Source: an uncultured Verrucomicrobiae bacterium (GTDB taxonomy: Bacteria; Verrucomicrobiota; Verrucomicrobiia; Limisphaerales; JAFGQR01). Taken from it: DNA of 64,000 nt. Shown here one piece after another: positions 20,962 to 29,384 of the stretch; the stretch's first letter is position 1; each line of letters begins with the position of its first letter. The notes beneath the pieces were generated by a model that saw nothing but the letters and a program-made list of their open reading frames with translations, was not told the DNA's origin and made no database searches. Where the stretch lies: assembly GCA_963788655.1 (NCBI GenBank), contig CAWBHS010000060.1, positions 320,001-384,000 on the forward strand. The letters are read 5' to 3'. A program made the position numbers and the translations under genes.

Positions 20962-23473
20962 CCGAGGGCAACTAACTCTTACCGAAAAAACGAGCTTAAA
21001 CTAACTATAGCAACTATGCATGTACCTGGCACTGCATCACAAACAGGGGTTCGCCGCTTTGTTGTCTTGATTGCTGCTGCAATGTTCTTTGCTTCTGAAC
21101 CTCACGCCTATTGCAGCGACTTTTTCTACCTTGATTCAAAGAGGATAGATAAGCTTTTATCGGCGGCTGGCCTACCACACTATCACCCTGGTGTATCGCG
21201 GAACCAAACAGGAAATGAGCTTTTCCTAACCGAAATTACCAATAGAGGTACGCTCGCCATAATAGTGTCGGCACAAGGAATACGAAAGCAAGTACTGCCG
21301 GAGGTGGCTGCAGCGGTTGCGGACGATGGCCGGCCGATCTGCTCCATCATGGATCACACTCTAGTTTTTGCTACGGGTGAGAAAGTCCCTCTCTTGGCTG
21401 GAAGCCGCTGGGGATTTTCCCACGACCGGAAGTTCTTCTTCTACTTGCGAGAACTCCCCGCTGCCGGTAGCGTGTTTCAGACTGTTGATCCTTTGAAGCC
21501 GTTTGTTAAATTGCCGGTAGACTTTCTGCCGCAGAGGATTTTCACCCGCACTAATGAGATTCTCGTATTTGGTCGGAAATACGATGGTGGCCGCGCGCCA
21601 GGCGCTCTTACAGGGCTTGTTTTTGTGACGGGCCAAACAGTTCCTAAGTTGGCGAAGGAAATCGAGCTTTCTCGTTTTGGCGGAGTGTCGGACATGGACA
21701 GTGAGACTGGTCTGCTCTTGGTGGAGGGCAAGCGCGAGATGTTTAATACATGGGGAATTTTCGACCCGCACACGGGTAAGTATAAGCCGCTTGGCGTAAA
21801 GAAGGGTTACGGTTTCTTTTTGGAACCTGGATTTCGAAAGGATTTGGAAAAGCTGTGTGAGCCGAGCACTCAGTAAACGTTACGACGCGGCCGGCCGGTT
21901 GACTAACCGCTGGAGCATTGCCAAAGGCCACACCTATTACGCCTACGACTGGGCGGGCAACCTGACCAACGTGGATTACGCCGCGAGCACCGACCTCCGG
22001 CTGGCCTACGACGGCTTGAACCGCCTGACAAATCTGGTGGACGGCGTGGGGACGACCAGCTACACTTACACCGATTTGGGCCAGTTGCTGACCGAGAATG
22101 GCCCCTGGGACGATGACACGGTGACTTACGCGTACACCAACCGTTTGCGCACGAGCCTGAGCCTGGCGCAGCCCGGCGCCAGCGCCTGGGAACAGACCTA
22201 CGCCTACGACGCCATGCGGCGGCTGACCACCACCACCTCGCCCGCGGGAGCTTTCGGCTACGCCTACACGGGAGTATCGAGTGGCACTTGGCCGGCGACG
22301 CTGGTAAAGAAACTCACCCTGCCCACCGGCGGCTACATCACCAACGCGTTTGACTCGGTGGGCCGCTGGAACAACACCCGGCTTGTCAGCTCGCAAGGCG
22401 CGACGATCAGCAAGACGCGGTGCGAATACAATGGAAATCAAGTCAACGCGATTTACCGTGACGAAAACACCCCGGACGAAGGTTGGATCAATTACGAGTA
22501 CGATAACATCGGCCAGTTGCGGAAGACAGCGGACGATGGCCTGGACCGCCTGCATGAGCAATTTGGTTACGCGTACGATGCCGCGCACAACCTGCAACAC
22601 TGGACCAACAACGCCCTGGTGAGGACGTTCAACGTCAACGCCGTGAACGAAGTGACCAACGTCACCCGCACAGGAGGGATAATCGTGGCCGGGTTCACCA
22701 CCAGCACGGCGACAAACATAATGGTCGCCGAGGAACCGGCGGTGATTTTCTCGGACAAAACGTACTTGCGGACCAACGTTGGCGTGGGAGATGGCTGGGG
22801 CACGGTGACAGCGATTGCCCAGTCCGCCACGGGCCAGACCGCGAGCAATTCGATCACCGTCTATCTGCCCTATTCGGTGAGCTTTAGCTACGATCTGAAC
22901 GGGAACCTGCTCTCCGACGGGTATCGGGCGTTCGCTTACGACGACGAAAACCAACTGATCGAGGTGCTGGTGACCAACGCCTGGAAAAGCGAGTTTGCCT
23001 ACGACGGCAAGCTACGCCGGCGGGTGCGGAAGGAGTATGCCTGGCAAAAAGGCGCGTGGGTGCAGACCAACGAAGTGCGCTACGTGTACGACGGCAACCT
23101 GGTCATCCAGGAACGGGACGGCAACAACGCGCCCGTGACGACCTACACGCGCGGTCTGGACCTGAGCGGCACGCTGCAAGGGGCCGGCGGCATCGGCGGC
23201 CTCTTGGCGATGACGCATCCGCTGCCGGGTCTGCCGCCGAACTATTACTACCGGGCGGACCTCAACGGGAACATCGTGACGATGATCAACACCAACGAGT
23301 TGATCGTGGCCAAGTACCTCTACGAGCCGTTCGGAAAAGTGATCGCGATGAACGGACCCATGGCGAGCGTGAACCGGTACCGTTTCTCCAGCAAGGAAGC
23401 GCACGAGCCGTCGGGATTGGTGTATTACGGCTACCGGTATTACGAGCCGTGGTTGCAACGGTGGCCAAACAGA
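18837..23473 (+). repeat. ~1.6 kb direct repeat of the RHS 3' region (18837-20430 vs 21880-23473, offset 3043)
   Basis: Near-identical DNA and protein; divergence begins right after QRW.NRDP. Confidence 0.95.
21016..21876 (+). CDS. Putative immunity protein of RHS CT1, exported, beta-rich
   Basis: Directly downstream of the toxin; visibly lower GC; signal peptide VRRFVVLIAAAMFFASEPHAYC. Confidence 0.65.
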   Translation: MHVPGTASQTGVRRFVVLIAAAMFFASEPHAYCSDFFYLDSKRIDKLLSAAGLPHYHPGVSRNQTGNELFLTEITNRGTLAIIVSAQGIRKQVLPEVAAAVADDGRPICSIMDHTLVFATGEKVPLLAGSRWGFSHDRKFFFYLRELPAAGSVFQTVDPLKPFVKLPVDFLPQRIFTRTNEILVFGRKYDGGRAPGALTGLVFVTGQTVPKLAKEIELSRFGGVSDMDSETGLLLVEGKREMFNTWGIFDPHTGKYKPLGVKKGYGFFLEPGFRKDLEKLCEPSTQ

Positions 23474-23923
23474 GACCCCATCAACGAACCGGGGTTCAAA
23501 CTGCTCACTCGTAGCGGTGGAACAATCAACTGGGATGAGGAGAGGAATCTTTACGCCTTTCTTCGGAACAATTCCGTAAACAACGTTGATCCCTTGGGGC
23601 AATCTGTTCTCGCACCAGTGGCAGGTTGGATTGGGACTGACTGTGCAGTTCCTGATCCAACCGATGCTGCGTGGCCGAAGTGGGCCGTGTATGGCATCGC
23701 CATCTGTGCCGCAGCCGCAATCGACGCTTGTTTCACAACGCGCACCTATACCTGTCGGGTTTTTTGCCCCTTATTGCGACAGGTGGAAACAACAACGCTG
23801 AAGTGGGAACAGTGCAGGCCACCGGAACAGGAAAACCTATGCTGAAGCTTGTCGAAACGCTGAAAGGGCTGCGCGGAACGCAGCTCCTCAGGAACACGAA
23901 CGAAGCATTGTCAATGGAGGTAA
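21880..23923 (+). pseudogene. Orphan RHS module (5'-truncated) with alternative toxin CT2; three apparent 1-bp deletions in CT2
   Basis: Starts mid-YD repeat immediately after the immunity stop; NSVNNVDPLG cleavage motif; repaired end reads TCRVFCP..GTGKTYAEACRNAERAARNAAP.GTRTKHCQWR* (TAA 23921-23923). Confidence 0.85.
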
Positions 23924-23926
23924 TAG

Positions 23927-24300
23927 ATGTCTAATGCATCCGTCGGCAGCAGCTTTGTTCGCACGAGAATATCGCGTGTGTGAAACTGTGTTTCTTGCAC
24001 CGCTAAGAGTTGGGGAGTCGCACGCCCATTTTGAATTGAAGATTGAGGTCTATCGAGACGGTTTCCGGGTTGTTCTCGGCAGCAGTGTTCGCTCTGGAGT
24101 TTTTCAATTTAGAGAATACGCCAGTGCCGCCCGTCAGCAACCAAGCCTCGATCAAGGGCGTTGTTCCGCTCTATGTCCTCGATGAGTTCTATGACACAAC
24201 GACGATCAGTGCTCGCTCGCAAGCGGAAGCATTACAAGCAGCCTTCCAGGTCATTCACGAAAAATTAACCCAGGCTGGCTGCGAGATTGAAGTGCTCTAG
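23927..24300 (+). CDS. Putative immunity protein of CT2 (two apparent frameshifts)
   Basis: ATG 3 nt after the repaired CT2 stop; MSNASVGSSFVRTRISRV / ETVFLAPLRVGESHAHFELKIEVYRDG / SGLFSAAVFALEFFNL...EIEVL*. Confidence 0.55.
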
Positions 24301-24872
24301 CCGCAGGGGCTTTGCCAATTCTGTTACAAAACCGATAAGTGAGCGGGCTGTCCCGCACAAACGGTGAGAAGGAATCTAGCGCGCCTCAGGCCGGCGCGAT
24401 AGAAGGTCGGCCACCCGCGCCTGCCGCACAGCCCTCGCGCTCCCTCCTGCCGCTGCGGGTGCGGCATCCGGGCCACACCCTGCGCCCCCTTGCCCCCGCA
24501 GCGTGTGTCCCGGCTGCCGCTCCGCTACGTCGGTCGGCCAGGGCTGCTAGCGGCCCGCCGCCCCGAAAGACACCCCCGGCGGGCGCTCCGTGTCACGCTG
24601 GCTGCTAAAGGCAAAGGCAGCCTTCGCGCCACTCCGCGCAGGTGGCTGCACCAACGGCGGGCCAACCGGAATAGTGGCGCTCGCCGACTCGCGCCAGAGC
24701 TTCGCCAGTTCGGGCGTCGCGGTTGCAATCGTGGCGTCCTGGGTGTTCTGCGCGTTCCGGCCCTGCGTTCGCGAGTGAGCGCTCGCAACAGAATCGAATG
24801 CGCTGTCGATAAAGTGACAGGTTCAAAGTTGTTGACATGTTTTGCACCCTGATGCCAACCTCCCGCCACTCT

Positions 24873-25841
24873 ATGAGAATGGCACGGATCAAGATTCAAG
24901 GGCGCAGTGCGGTGTATCACTGCATGTCGCGGATTGTCGGGGGACAGGCTTTGTTGGATGACGTGGGGAAGGAGAAGTTGGTGGCCATCCTCGGGCAATT
25001 GGCTGCGTTTTGCGGCCTTGAAGTCATCACCTACTGCATGATGTCCAATCACTTTCATGTTCTCGTTCGCGTTCCGGAACAACAGAATCCCTCCGACCAG
25101 CAACTGATCGAGCGCATGGAAGCCTTGTACAGCAAGAAAAGCGCCCTGGTGCAATTAGCCCGCAACACTTTGGTGCAGCACGGCCGGATCGATCACGATA
25201 TTCGGCAATCCATGGTGGAGCGAATGGGGGATGTTTCCGCGTTCATGAAGGAACTCAAGCAGCGGTTCAGCCGTTGGTACAACCGACAATCGGGGCGCTT
25301 TGGCACGCTCTGGGCCGAGCGGTTCAAGAGTGTATTGGTGGAGGATCAACCGGGAGCGGTTGAAACCCTCGCCGCGTACATTGATCTGAATCCAGTGCGC
25401 GCCGGTTTGGTGGACGATCCCAAAGAGTATCGTTTCTGTGGCTACGCTGCGGCGTTGGCCGGCAACAAAGCGGCCCGAGCGGGATTGCTAAGCTTCCAAA
25501 AGAGCATCGACTGGAAGACCGGCGCTGCTGAATATCGAAAACGCTTGTTCGTGGGAGCGGGAGTCGCCGGAAGAAGCGATAAATTGGTTCTGGATCGCGA
25601 GCAGATCAAACGCGTGTTGTCTCAAGGCGGTGAGCTGAGCCAGGCACAAATCCTGCGTTTGCGCCTCCGACATTTAACCGATGGAATTGTGCTGGGTTCG
25701 AAGGCCTTCGTGAACGAAATCTTTGCGTTGCACCGCGACAAATTCGGCGCCAAGCGACAATCGGGAGCCCGGCCGATTCGCGGCGTGCCGTTGCGGGAGC
25801 TGAGCGTTTTGCGGGATTTGCGCGTCTCCGCCGTTAGCTAA
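24873..25841 (+). mobile_element. REP-associated tyrosine transposase (RAYT, IS200-like Y1 HUH family)
   Basis: VYHCMSRI, YCMMSNHFHVLV (HUH), MKELKQRFSRWYN...GTLWAERFKSVLV, YIDLNPVRAGLVDDPKEYRFCGY. Confidence 0.92.
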
Positions 25842-25889
25842 GAGTTTACTGGGACCTTCCGTTTGAATCTTCGTTGCCTTTTTGAACCA

Positions 25890-27867
25890 GTAGAGTAGAG
25901 AGGAAAGCACGGAATGAAAGGCCCGAAAACCAATGACCGCCGCTTCCCTCTCCCTCGTCGAACCGGACATGGAGATTTCCCCCATCCGGCTCTCGCCAGT
26001 GTCGGCTCTTCCACAAAGCATTCACAACGCAACCAGTCCCAGATGGTCCAAGTGAGCATACAGGCTGACGCCCTCACGGGCTCGCCAACCCCGTTGGCTG
26101 CGACGTTGCAGATGCCGTCCCAACCGATACCGCACGAAGTGATTGAGCTGACGAAATGCCTTCCGCGGATAGCCCAACTTGAAGTAGTTGGACCAACCCC
26201 GCAGGTGACGGTTCACCCGTCCAATCAACTCCGGCATGGGCGTATGACTCTGATGCGGGTTGATCAACCCTCGCAACGCTTTCCGTTCCCGATCCATCGT
26301 TTTGCGCGACGGTTCCAGGTTCCAGTAACGCTGCGGCCGACCGTATTGATCGCGGTCATACCGAAAGGTGTAGCCCAGGAAATCCAGGCTCTGGCCCGAT
26401 TGCTTCAAATCCACGATCCGAGTTTTATCCCGGTTGATTTGCAGGTCCAGCCAGCCTTCCAGTTTGCCCTCGATCCATTCCCGCAACTTCGGACTGATGT
26501 AGCGAGCCATGACCACGAAGTCGTCCGCGTAACGGATCAGCTTCGCTTTGGCCCATTGCGCCGGTCCATCTCCTCGTTGGAAGAGGTGGTCGAACCAGTG
26601 CAAATAGACATTGGCCAGCAAAGGCGAAAGCACTCCACCTTGGGGGGTGCCCCGGTCGTTGCGTCGCACCGTGGGTGGTTGTCCCCCTGGGGGCGGTTCC
26701 ACCACCGGCGCCTTGAGCCATTGTCGGATCAGTCCCAGGACCGAACCGTCCACCACGCGCATCCGCACGCAAGCGATCAGCTTATCGTGGGGAATGCTGT
26801 CGAAGTAGCCAGCCAAATCCGCATCATACACCGCCGTTTGACCCTCCTTCAGGTGCTGTTGGATGGCGCGCAAGGCATCGTGCGCCGATCGTCCGGGCCG
26901 AAACCCGTGGGAGCAGTCTTCAAAGTCGGCTTCGAAGATCGGCTCCAGGATCAGCAACACCGCCGCTTGCACCACCCGGTCCCGCACCGTCGGAATGCCC
27001 AACGGCCGCAACTTGCCGTTGGCCTTCGAGATATACACCCGCCGCACCGCTTGGGCACGATAGGTTTTGTCCCTCAGGCTCCGTTCGATCTCGGACAGAA
27101 ATGCCGCTTCGCTTTCCGGCGTCGTGGTGATCTGTTCGATGCTCACTCCGTCCACGCCCGGCGCACCGTCGTTGCGCCGCACCGCGGCCCAAGCCGCTTG
27201 CAGCACGTCGGTTCGATACACCAAAGCGTAGAGACTGTAGAAGCGAAACCGCTTCTGTTGTTTGGCTTTCTGGCCCAGCTTCTGTCTCAGTTCCCGCAGG
27301 CTCGGCGGCAGGATCGCTTCCCGGAAGGAAAGTTCCTCCACCGCTTCTTCTGTTGTAGGAATGAACTCCATCCCAATCAGCTCCGGATTCCTCTGACTCG
27401 GCTTGACTCTGGCCAGGGCTCCTTGGCTCCCTGCCAACTTGATCGGCAGATCGACGCTACTATGAGCCCATCCGACGCCGCGATTCGGCCCCACCAGCGG
27501 TTATGGCTTCCCGCCAGGGGTTGTCCTGCGTTACAGGCCAGGACTCCGAACCGGGCCTCCCAAGTTCCCAGTGGTTCTTTCTGCGCGCGCTGTCTCCTCT
27601 CACCCCGGGGAGTCCGGTCGGTGCATGGGATCGAATCTTCCCGACCGATGCGGGCTTCACCACATCCGGCAGGCTGGCCACTCCCAGTTTTGTGTAACGA
27701 GGCCGAACCGAGTTCGCGGAACGCTACGGCTCGCGCATTGGCCTTCCCCAGCTTCAACGGGCAGGATCGCTCCCACCCGCTTAAGGGTCGGCTACATGAC
27801 TCTCGACCATTTATCATGGTTAACACGTTGCAGTTAACAAGAACCACCAAGCTTGCTTGGCGCTTTC
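25890..27867 (-). mobile_element. Group II intron, full length (~1978 nt)
   Basis: Domain V GAGCCGGATGGGGGAAATCTCCATGTCCGGTTC (~25960-25993); domain VI ending CTCTACTCTAC at 25890; ~500 nt structured 5' region; removing 25890-27867 restores a REP-like motif. Confidence 0.92.
26022..27371 (-). CDS. ltrA: Group II intron reverse transcriptase/maturase (RT + domain X, no endonuclease)
   Basis: [69 protein letters not shown]. Confidence 0.97.
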
Positions 27868-27956
27868 CGAATTGACACTAATTAATGGGATTTCCCAACC
27901 GGTGTCAAAACGCTACTCGGTACCTTGAATTCGTGGTAATTCGTGTAATTAGTGTC
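27868..27956. repeat. REP-like inverted repeat (ACACTAATT/ACACGAATT family) flanking the intron
   Basis: GACACTAATT (27874-27883) pairs with AATTAGTGTC (27947-27956); AATTCGTGGTAATTCGTGT lies between them. Confidence 0.75.
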
Positions 27957-28016
27957 TTCACCTTCGTGTCTCAACTCTGCCTTTGCTTCCTGGCGGGAGC
28001 CTGCTAGACATTTCCC

Positions 28017-29384
28017 ATGCAAGCCGTCCTTGATTACCTGAAACAAAACGAGGCCCGATTCGTCCAGGAACTTTGCGAGTATGTGCGGTTTCCCAGCGTG
28101 TCCGCGCAACCGCAGCATCAGAAAGACATGGCCGCCTGCGCCCGCTGGCTGGTACAGCACTGCACTCGGATAGGATTGAAAGCCCGCCTGCAGCCGACTG
28201 CGGGACATCCCATCGTGATTGCCAAAACGCCCCGCGCCCGTTCGGCATCGCGTCCGCATTTCCTCGTTTATGGGCATTACGACGTGCAACCGCCGGAGCC
28301 GTTTGAGTTGTGGAAGACTCCGCCATTCGAACCGACCGTGGTGGGCCGCTCGCTTTTCGGCCGTGGCGCCAGCGACAACAAAGGCCAGCACCTGGCCCAC
28401 TTGAACGCCGTCGAAGCGCATCTGCAAACTGGCACTGAGCTGCCCTGCGATCTGACGTTTGTCATCGAGGGCGAAGAAGAAGTCGGCAGCAGTCACCTGG
28501 CGGATTTCTTGCGCCACAATCGAAAGGAGCTGAGTTGCGAAGCCGTGATCATCTCCGACAACGGCATTCCCAGCCGGAAATATCCGGCGTTGACCTACGG
28601 GCTGCGTGGGATCGCTGCCCTGGAAATCGAACTGCGCGGTCCGTCGCGTGATCTGCACTCCGGTATTTTCGGCGGCACGGTGGACAATCCGGCGATGGCG
28701 TTGTGTCAATTGCTGGCCCAGTTGCGCGACCAGAACGGGCGCATAGCCGTCCCCGGCTTTTATGACGACGTCAATCCGCTGGTGGCTTACGAGCGCAAAC
28801 AGTTCGCCCGCCTGCCCCATAACGATGCGGCCTACCGCAAGTTCCTCGGCGTGCCGAAGTTGTTCGGCGAACGTGGCTACACCGCCATCGAGCAACGTTC
28901 GGCCCGACCCACCATTGAGATCAATGGTTTGACGAGCGGCTACCAGGGCGAGGGCAGCAAGACCATCGTGCCCGCGTGGGCCCGGGCCAAACTGACGTTC
29001 CGCCTTGTCCCGAACCAGAAGCCGGACAAAATCCTCCGGTTGGTGCGCCAGCACTTGAAGCGGATTTGTCCCCCAACGGTGCGGATGTCGCTGCAATCAG
29101 GCCACGGCGGCGATCCGTATTTGGTGTCACCGACCAGTCCACATTCGCAGGCGGCGCTGCGGGCGTTGAAGTTTGCTTTCGGCTGCGAGCCAGTGCTGAT
29201 GCGCGAAGGCGGTTCCATTCCCATCGTCAACGATTTCAAGCGCATCCTGGGCGCCGACACCTTGTTGCTCGGAATGGCCTTGCCCGATGACAATGCCCAC
29301 TCGCCCAATGAAAAATTCGACCTCGATTGCTTCGCGTGTGGGATGCGGTTGGGGGCATGTTTGTGGGAGGAAATGGGGCGGTGA
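28017..29384 (+). CDS. M20-family dipeptidase (ArgE/DapE-like)
   Basis: LVYGHYDVQP, GRGASDNKGQ, IEGEEEVGS, DLHSG, GGSIP, NAHSPNEKF. Confidence 0.95.
   Translation: MQAVLDYLKQNEARFVQELCEYVRFPSVSAQPQHQKDMAACARWLVQHCTRIGLKARLQPTAGHPIVIAKTPRARSASRPHFLVYGHYDVQPPEPFELWKTPPFEPTVVGRSLFGRGASDNKGQHLAHLNAVEAHLQTGTELPCDLTFVIEGEEEVGSSHLADFLRHNRKELSCEAVIISDNGIPSRKYPALTYGLRGIAALEIELRGPSRDLHSGIFGGTVDNPAMALCQLLAQLRDQNGRIAVPGFYDDVNPLVAYERKQFARLPHNDAAYRKFLGVPKLFGERGYTAIEQRSARPTIEINGLTSGYQGEGSKTIVPAWARAKLTFRLVPNQKPDKILRLVRQHLKRICPPTVRMSLQSGHGGDPYLVSPTSPHSQAALRALKFAFGCEPVLMREGGSIPIVNDFKRILGADTLLLGMALPDDNAHSPNEKFDLDCFACGMRLGACLWEEMGR

Follow-up and report, generated by a model that had tools for sequence, protein, structure and literature searches.

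A group II intron of probable IIE/IIF type that appears to find its targets in short intergenic repeat arrays by RNA-DNA pairing

We analysed a stretch of 64,000 nucleotides from an uncultured Verrucomicrobiae bacterium (positions 320,001 to 384,000 of contig CAWBHS010000060.1, GenBank assembly GCA_963788655.1), hereafter the window, whose numbering is used for all coordinates given without a contig. The genome is assembled in 115 contigs and is 86% complete. On the minus strand, the window carries a complete group II intron of 1978 nt (25890..27867), which reads 5′ GAAAGCGCC ... CUCUAC 3′ and encodes a reverse transcriptase (RT)/maturase of 490 aa, counted from the first GTG (26022..27494, minus strand; RVT_1 and GIIM domains, YADD motif). 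The intron interrupts a hairpin repeat element made of ~10-nt units (27868..27957, minus strand), whose left arm is GACACTAATT-ACACGAATT-ACCACGAATT and whose right arm, AATTAGTGTC-AATTCG, is the one cut. Past the 3′ end of the intron, a 48-nt spacer (25842..25889, minus strand; 3′ exon TGGTTCAAAAAGG...) leads to a gene for a Y1 (HUH) transposase. The neighbour outside the element on the other side is a gene for an M20 peptidase, antisense to the intron (28017..29384, plus strand; Pfam Peptidase_M20 and M20_dimer). An earlier note on this DNA had proposed that a non-IIC intron sits here in a hairpin resembling repetitive extragenic palindromes (REPs), next to the gene of a REP-associated tyrosine transposase (RAYT), and uses such RAYT-spread hairpins as safe, multi-copy targets. 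Its geometry was confirmed: the two arms of the stem lie at 27874-27883 (GACACTAATT, plus strand) and 27947-27956 (AATTAGTGTC), six nucleotides, AATTCG (27873-27868), separate the stem from the intron, the insertion cuts a unit of the repeat itself, and 48 nt lie between the end of the Y1 stop codon at 25841 and that of the intron at 25890.

The limits of the intron were given by its copies and by empty sites. Five copies were found in the genome, each exactly 1978 nt long and differing by 0 to 3 nt: three are identical, one has a single nucleotide change, and the window copy is 2 nt off the main type. The block common to all five is GAAAGCGCC...CTCTAC (CUCUAC in the RNA). Of the two empty sites, one lies on contig C113, in the flank of a 97%-identical paralogue of the Y1 gene, and reads ...TAATCCG|TGGTTCAAAAAGGCAACG (3′ exon TGGTTCAAAAAGG); the other lies on C23, in the same 90-nt hairpin element as in the window, and reads ...CAATTCG|TGCAATTCGTGTCT (3′ exon TGCAATTCG). 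Any shift of the boundaries is incompatible with this pair of sites. Both ends are thus unambiguous, and the intron begins with GAAAG (27863-27867), not with the canonical GUGYG. For comparison, the 80 best of 341 related loci were fetched (RT identity 56-95%; Verrucomicrobia, Acidobacteria, Desulfobacterales and others), 46 of which gave a usable alignment over the 5′ 330 nt. Within these 46 the 5′ end is varied, with GUGCG, GUACG, GUACA, GAACA, GAAUA, GAGCG, GUAGCG and GAAAGCG. Five copies that differ by so little point to recent mobility, and their unrelated outer flanks argue against segmental duplication as their origin; the intron is very probably mobile at present, or was so until very recently.

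The ribozyme was recognised by two Rfam models, RF00029 for domains V-VI (25890-25994; 47.2 bits, gathering score 40) and RF02005, a domain I-IV model (27593-27829; 59.8 bits, gathering score 49). Without its open reading frame (ORF) it measures 505 nt (1978 − 1473). Domain V (25960..25992, minus strand, by Rfam alignment; GAGCCGGAUGGGGGAAAUCUCCAUGUCCGGUUC) has an AGC triad, as the earlier note had read, and a 5-nt terminal loop, GAAAU, closed by a GGGG/CUCC helix. IIC introns carry a CGC triad. Domain VI and the 3′ end (25890..25955, minus strand), paired by hand, place a bulged A at about 25896, at a distance of 7 nt from the 3′ splice site, and a motif CUACUCUAC is conserved at the 3′ end in 51 relatives. 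The RT/maturase scored 381.6 bits with TIGR04416 (cut-off 300), and its nearest solved structure is the GsI-IIC RT (198 bits). The Pfam scan found neither an endonuclease (D/En) domain nor any nuclease family in it, and the protein ends ~20 residues past GIIM, in agreement with the endonuclease-less RT described before.

The five filled sites share the pattern GTGY-N(1-3)-(A/C)TYYG|TGG, and their 5′ flanks consist of ~10-nt units with the core CACGAAT/ATTCGTG. In the window, the target in the 5′ exon (27868..27878, minus strand) is composed of GTGT (27878-27875), a spacer CA, and ATTCG (27872-27868), which we call intron-binding sites 2 and 1 (IBS2 and IBS1). Arrays were counted as spaced units, with the reversed genome as a control. 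Arrays of at least two units numbered 40, versus 2 in the control, so the motif is indeed multi-copy, as had been supposed; arrays of at least three units numbered 19, versus 0. Six inverted array pairs had the CACGAAT arm first and none had the other order, a count made on the genome and not on its control. Empty sites matching GTGY-N1-2-ATYCGTGGT were found 17 times, versus twice in the control, nearly all at the outer end of an array, and a typical array end, ...ATTCGTGGTT, is the ligated-exon sequence of the intron. The empty site on C59 is identical to the filled site on C39, C97 holds an empty duplicate of the filled C107 site, and for three of the five introns a strict array lies no more than 62 nt away. 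The target element is accordingly short, palindromic and multi-copy, like REPs, REP doublets forming hairpins (REPINs) or miniature inverted-repeat transposable elements (MITEs); a consistent target-site duplication was not seen around the elements of this genome. An excess of the 8-mer CACGAATT (421 occurrences, versus 160 expected by base composition) was dropped as evidence, since AT-rich words reach a six-fold excess here, hence the counts of spaced arrays. The 11217 matches of a whole-genome run of Tandem Repeats Finder (TRF), mostly trivial, were left out of the counts.

Candidate exon-binding sites (EBS) are present in domain I. EBS1, 5′-CGGAU (intron nt 200-204; 27664..27668, minus strand), lies in the loop of a hairpin (intron nt 197-207 by the Rfam alignment) and can pair with ATTCG; the earlier note had called for such a match to the end of the exon. 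EBS2, 5′-ACAC (intron nt 173-176; 27692..27695, minus strand), lies in an unpaired stretch (UUACAC) 5′ of the EBS1 stem. Besides the CGGAU of this intron, 13 other pentamers occupy the EBS1 loop among the aligned relatives, and all five pairs with the last five exon bases were formed in 38 of the 45 testable ones. With the five copies of this genome added, full EBS1-IBS1 pairing was found at 41 of 49 sites, compared to 11% for non-cognate combinations. EBS2 covaries with exon positions −11/−10 to −8/−7 (CAC/GUG, CUC/GAG, CGC/GCG, AAC/GUU), all four pairs being formed at 21 of 49 sites, versus 13% for non-cognate pairings. The 3′ exon opens with a pyrimidine at 50 of 51 junctions, and the exception is an assembly artefact. 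Judged from these alignments, targeting appears to be by sequence, through RNA-DNA pairing.

The flanks of 47 distinct sites were compared with 437 control windows drawn from the same loci. The IBS1 pentamer was repeated 8-11 nt upstream, with at most one mismatch, at 32 of the 47 sites and in 36 of the 437 controls. Enrichment was weak for an inverted 9-mer upstream (16/47 versus 94/437), and the mean folding energy of the 120-nt 5′ flanks was −18.1 kcal/mol for the sites and −18.5 for the controls. The general target signature is a tandem IBS unit, not a hairpin. The position of the insertion varies as well: in this genome and in two relatives (G001 and G004) it is the outermost unit of an array, in G002 it is the base of the 3′ arm, in a hairpin of 10 bp, and at loci L038, L044 and L082 it is a hairpin loop. 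Thus, of what the earlier note expected from a survey of homologous introns, targets in multi-copy repeats were found and a general palindromic signature was not; with EBS1 and EBS2 covarying, the hairpin is not supported as the recognised feature.

Copies of the target were counted in nine genomes (this one, G001-G004 and G125-G128), and 17 to 71 were found in all nine, versus 0 to 2 in controls. In G001, a Pedosphaerales metagenome-assembled genome, arrays of three ATCCGYR units numbered 21 (control 0), 4 filled and 17 empty; all empty ones were followed by YGGT, and most arrays were solitary and direct. In the Terriglobia genome G002, the targets were REP hairpins, GTRGGA-CAGACCATCGC-NNN-GCGTGGTCTG, of 10 bp, with variable loops and one compensatory pair; 26 copies were counted (control 0), 6 filled and 20 empty. 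The Desulfobacterales genome G003 had 28 ATCCTGT arrays (control 0). The Verrucomicrobiales genome G004 had 70 ATCTGCG arrays (control 0), and among 19 inspected 1 was filled and 18 were empty. Many of these are the two ends of a ~150-nt palindromic element present in many near-identical copies (L178-L196). By eye, a 5-bp direct duplication, exact or one base off, surrounds most of 12 copies; an autonomous partner of the element was not identified in G004. Finally, four Acidobacteria (G125-G128) gave 33, 24, 71 and 17 copies of GTAGCGCSRRHCTG (controls 1-2), often as inverted doublets ~72 nt apart.

Among the targets are terminal arrays of MITE-like elements for the verrucomicrobial relatives and GTAG-headed REPs for the acidobacterial ones. 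In all likelihood, the relatives have retuned EBS1 and EBS2 to the small repeat of their own host, be it the terminal array of a MITE or a REP. The core of the earlier proposal, a non-IIC intron in a multi-copy intergenic repeat, is borne out: at least three of the five copies here lie near arrays, a fourth site has an empty duplicate, and relatives behave alike in 9 of the 9 genomes tested. A wider statement, that a core class-F lineage has specialised for the high-copy small palindromic repeats of its hosts (MITE-like arrays in Verrucomicrobia; GTAG-headed REPs or REPINs, including RAYT-flanking ones, in Acidobacteria), reading two units and retuning EBS1 and EBS2 for each host, seems to us slightly likelier to be true than false. 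The intron may also be carried along when the repeat element itself is mobilised. At the 3′ junction of one related locus (L064), a second intron (GTGCGCCAGG...) was observed to start 10 nt past the 3′ end of the first, so that two introns occupy neighbouring units of one array. The only other genome of the family, from the same genus (G005), had no strict array; it had pieces of 28-53 nt from the intron's 5′ end, at C94:35229-35282 and C84:4880-4908, which may be remnants of lost intron copies.

We consider it highly probable that these results, taken as a whole, are explained by a mobile intron of IIE/IIF type that reads array units by pairing. The lariat-RT particle left by splicing would reverse-splice into DNA at a site chosen by pairing of EBS1 (CGGAU) with ATYCG at −5 to −1, followed by a pyrimidine at +1, and of EBS2 (ACAC) with GTGY ~10 nt upstream. 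Since the two exon motifs are spaced by one repeat period, the intron would in fact read two adjacent units of a short tandem array, and it would land in small palindromic elements scattered in intergenic DNA, at their outermost unit (...ATTCG|TGGTT). The cDNA would then be primed by strands of the replication fork, as is known for other introns with an endonuclease-less RT. We infer the reverse splicing and fork priming steps. The comparisons above directly show where the intron begins and ends, how many copies it has, that EBS and target covary, and that the targets are multi-copy.

Several points weigh against this explanation. The comparison was restricted to the best 80 of 341 related loci, with 46 aligned, and the genomes in which copies were counted had been chosen for a visible repeat in the flank, so that they do not form a blind sample. 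For distant relatives, the 5′ boundary was picked among up to six positions to maximise pairing, and the EBS1 count is consequently flattered for these rows. The EBS2 covariation is moderate; because GTG belongs to the repeat unit, its conservation partly mirrors the array rather than a need of the intron, and EBS2-IBS2 is described as dispensable for in vitro splicing of IIE/IIF introns in PMC3753933. In this genome, the C60:18463 site has a degenerate unit context and forms 4 of 5 IBS1 pairs. The 5′ end, GAAAG, departs from GUGYG, and splicing and mobility are deduced from the copies.

A different reading would have the intron recognise structure in the manner of IIC introns: it would need the DNA hairpin that inverted arrays form, and the sequence motifs would be secondary. 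In its favour, clear inverted arrays have the window and C39 insertions at their outer end; the G002 targets form hairpins of 10 bp whose loops vary and in which one change is compensatory; the sites show some enrichment of inverted 9-mers; no solved structure is nearer to the RT than those of IIC RTs; and PMC4748821 uses classes F and g1 as the outgroup to class C. Folded as single-stranded DNA, the 93-nt 5′ flank reached −12.2 kcal/mol (z −2.35, 4 of 200 shuffles as good), and the uninterrupted C23 paralogue −19.7 kcal/mol (z −4.24, 0 of 200); the window stem is modestly better than chance, and the 10-bp stem noted earlier corresponds to a longer palindrome of three units, read in a shifted register. 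Recognition of structure fits poorly with an EBS2 that is present and covaries, IIC introns being devoid of EBS2 (PMC3753933), with 5′ flanks that fold no better than controls, and with the mostly solitary, direct arrays of G001. The point of insertion also changes with respect to the hairpin (after the 3′ arm in G002, in the loop at L038, L044 and L082, in the outermost unit here), and the stem contains both IBS1 and IBS2, so that pairing would first require its melting. We hold this reading to be improbable.

It is equally improbable, in our opinion, that the neighbouring transposase has spread the arrays as REPs or REPINs, in which case the intron would exploit a RAYT-REP system in this genome. 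The Y1 gene (24837..25841, plus strand; 334 aa, Pfam Y1_Tnp 45.3 bits) does have the Y1 fold, with the HUH motif and catalytic tyrosine (HFH and YIDLNP in the translation). Its score with the RAYT family REP_Tyr_transpos (NCBIfam NF047646) is 59.4, below the cut-off of 80, so that it is RAYT-like rather than the RAYT announced; the start given earlier, 24873, is an internal ATG. The proximity of gene and target (48 nt) is in favour of the proposal, and a related hairpin lies at the same place by the C113 paralogue. Y1 copies on C50 are preceded by a CACGAAT arm and ~15 nt (GACTCTGATCG) common to short elements on C50 and C8, and a strict array is found no farther than 2.1 kb from 2 of 6 Y1 loci, compared to 325 of 20000 random loci (1.6%). 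In the acidobacterial genome G002, moreover, one intron (L078) occupies a GTAG-headed REP, at 22 nt on the upstream side of a RAYT-like gene that scores 79.6 bits and has no paralogue above 42% identity in its genome; an inverted REP follows just downstream of the gene. This is a classical REP-RAYT-REP locus, and there the idea holds. Here, by contrast, the gene has an array on one side and 4-5 paralogues of 78-97% identity, unlike a single-copy RAYT with REPs on both sides; the flanks of the paralogues are inconsistent, those on C62 and C49 having no arrays. Across 121 genomes of the order the two do not go together: the Y1 family occurs in 17, of which 6 have arrays, versus an overall 52 of 121, and it is absent from all of the 10 genomes richest in arrays. 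With 17 copies in each of G096 and G106, the highest numbers seen, the family is like insertion sequences (IS) and unlike a single-copy RAYT. None of 10 Y1 loci in G001 and none of 7 in G004 were near arrays. The array elements of G004 have 5-bp direct duplications; Y1 transposition (IS200/IS605 family) makes no target duplications. A third possibility is that the intron makes the arrays itself, the use of upstream 5′ splice sites followed by reinsertion adding units, so that the repeats would be its footprints. The repeat period equals the IBS2-IBS1 spacing, and in vitro the IIF intron Ge.ur.I1-1, discussed below, also uses excision sites that lie 9 and 19 nt upstream, which would yield introns with extra units. 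Strict arrays of three ATTCGTG units were found in those 52 genomes (up to 56 per genome; controls 0) and intron DNA in 18 of the 121; the two occurred together in 9, leaving 43 of the 52 array-bearing genomes with no intron DNA match. Arrays mostly devoid of intron across the order are not intron footprints, and empty arrays also prevail in G001 (17/21), as do empty REPs in G002 (20/26). The constant CACGAAT-first order of paired arrays (6 versus 0) would be unexpected of footprints, the filled C39 array and the empty C59 array share the same units, and the arrays of G004 are parts of MITE-like elements with 5-bp duplications. This last possibility is very remote, and we regard it as largely refuted.

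We read the adjacency of the Y1 gene and the intron in the window as a co-location of mobile elements; the Y1 element itself may prefer these repeats. The earlier interpretation is thus partly supported, right in its core, a non-IIC intron with safe targets in many copies, and wrong in its emphasis on the hairpin, in place of pairing, and on a RAYT, no link having been found that ties the arrays to the Y1 gene of the window. Among the 80 related loci, a Y1 gene was present in the fetched flanks of 2, and at L082 a RAYT (96.4 bits) lies ~470 nt from the intron. A few further observations concern the Y1 genes. At G000:C50:3800-6200, degraded or truncated Y1 copies are clustered, each cut at the HUH codons and then followed by the CACGAAT arm, and a promoter-like box of the Y1 gene, GATAAAGTGACAGGTTCAAAG, recurs beyond the arm. 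At G045:C14:137590-145188, in the same order, a Y1 homologue (55% identity) lies 5.5 kb from an intron fragment of 94% identity. A DnaA-like C-terminal domain, considered for the Y1 protein, was rejected, as Pfam gave no match for it, even at E values up to 10.

The two flanks of the window copy differ in kinship. The hairpin element on its 5′ side is 100% identical over 90 nt to C23:3938-4027, and this identity with the C23 site (C23:3938-4041) reaches the very junction and goes no farther. For the 3′ flank, the match is with the flank of the Y1 paralogue on C113 (C113:33390-33519), which itself lies behind a different hairpin; the 48-nt spacer is 94% identical to the intron-free C113:33472-33519. 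Such chimeric flanks suggest recombination between intron copies; the reciprocal product was not found among the five copies. The best-resolved sites (window, C39 and C60:18463) are intergenic, and in the window and on C39 the intron is antisense to both neighbouring genes, according to ORF lists that are crude. Farther out in the window, small ORFs come after one for an RHS-repeat protein (21857-23845), and upstream of the Y1 gene a stretch of sequence (24300-24800) is very rich in G+C.

On structural hallmarks and the taxonomy of its relatives, the intron is probably of the IIE/IIF structural type and a core member of class F. Its domain V loop has 5 nt, its ribozyme without the ORF (505 nt) falls within the 450-700 nt range of the type, and its RT is devoid of D/En. 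The RT relatives come from Bryobacterales, Brocadiaceae, Desulfobacterales and Acidobacteria, groups that we take to match the taxa of the named class F members. In the Introduction of PMC3753933, IIE/IIF introns are characterised by an RT lacking the endonuclease, a domain V loop of 5 nt, a domain I that bears both EBS1 and EBS2, and a ribozyme that is small and IIB-like. Ge.ur.I1, So.us.I2, Pe.th.I2 and c-Ku.st.I1 form the core of class F according to Toro and Martinez-Abarca.

If our reading is correct, repeat-reading introns would represent a third niche strategy, beside IIC introns at terminators and attC sites and IIB1 introns at start and stop codons. In the review PMC4424553, the targets of bacterial group II introns are ordinary homing sites, terminator hairpins and attC sites, to which a 2025 paper (PMC12584367) adds the start and stop codons of housekeeping genes. 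Intergenic repeats, scattered as they are, would supply many harmless landing sites, and a lineage reading them could explain how an endonuclease-less intron comes to have many neutral sites. It could also explain why a covarying EBS2 persists in IIE/IIF introns despite being dispensable in vitro, a point left unexplained by Nagy et al., and why Ge.ur.I1-1 has multiple 5′ splice sites. The intron would be a naturally retargeted one whose specificity is legible from genomes, and, as a marker, it would help to find small repeat families in phyla that have received little study. A full-text literature search, whose scope did not include the paper defining class F (Simon et al. 2008, RNA 14:1704), returned no paper on class E/F introns homing into repeats as a lineage strategy.

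The closest known system is Ge.ur.I1-1, a IIF intron of Geobacter uraniireducens, for which PMC3753933 (section 8) reports extra 5′ splice sites 9 and 19 nt upstream, with repeated AUUCG/CGUGU. The intron of the window shares with it and with class F the endonuclease-less RT, the small IIB-like ribozyme, the 5-nt domain V loop and the domain I EBS1 and EBS2. The exon motifs are also alike: in both cases the 5′ exon has AUUCG (for EBS1) and (C)GUGU (for EBS2) in repeats spaced by 9-10 nt. The GAAAG 5′ end, in place of GUGYG, is unlike class F. In that paper (PMC3753933), the repeated IBS motifs are treated as alternative splice sites only, not as a repeat-element target. The resemblance to class C (IIC) introns lies in the endonuclease-less RT nearest to IIC structures and in the many intergenic sites per genome, beside or inside palindromic DNA. 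The intron differs from them by its AGC triad, by its candidate EBS2, which is present and covaries, by a covarying 5-nt IBS1 within the repeat, and by a target defined by sequence. Like RmInt1 (class D), it is endonuclease-less and appears to home into a multi-copy mobile element, ISRm2011-2 in the case of RmInt1, which uses EBS1, EBS2 and EBS3. RmInt1 is of another class and its target is an IS gene, unlike the short non-coding repeat found here. The use of multi-copy extragenic palindromes of the host as safe sites is shared with the IS elements ISPpu9, ISPpu10, IS1397 and ISPa11, which target REPs (Tobes and Pareja 2006, PMC1525189); a table of the same paper gives 2 of 9 copies of group II introns of P. 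putida KT2440 as REP-associated. Those IS elements are DNA transposons whose target is read by a protein, unlike the present intron, which apparently reads the repeat by RNA pairing, a habit that extends lineage-wide across phyla.

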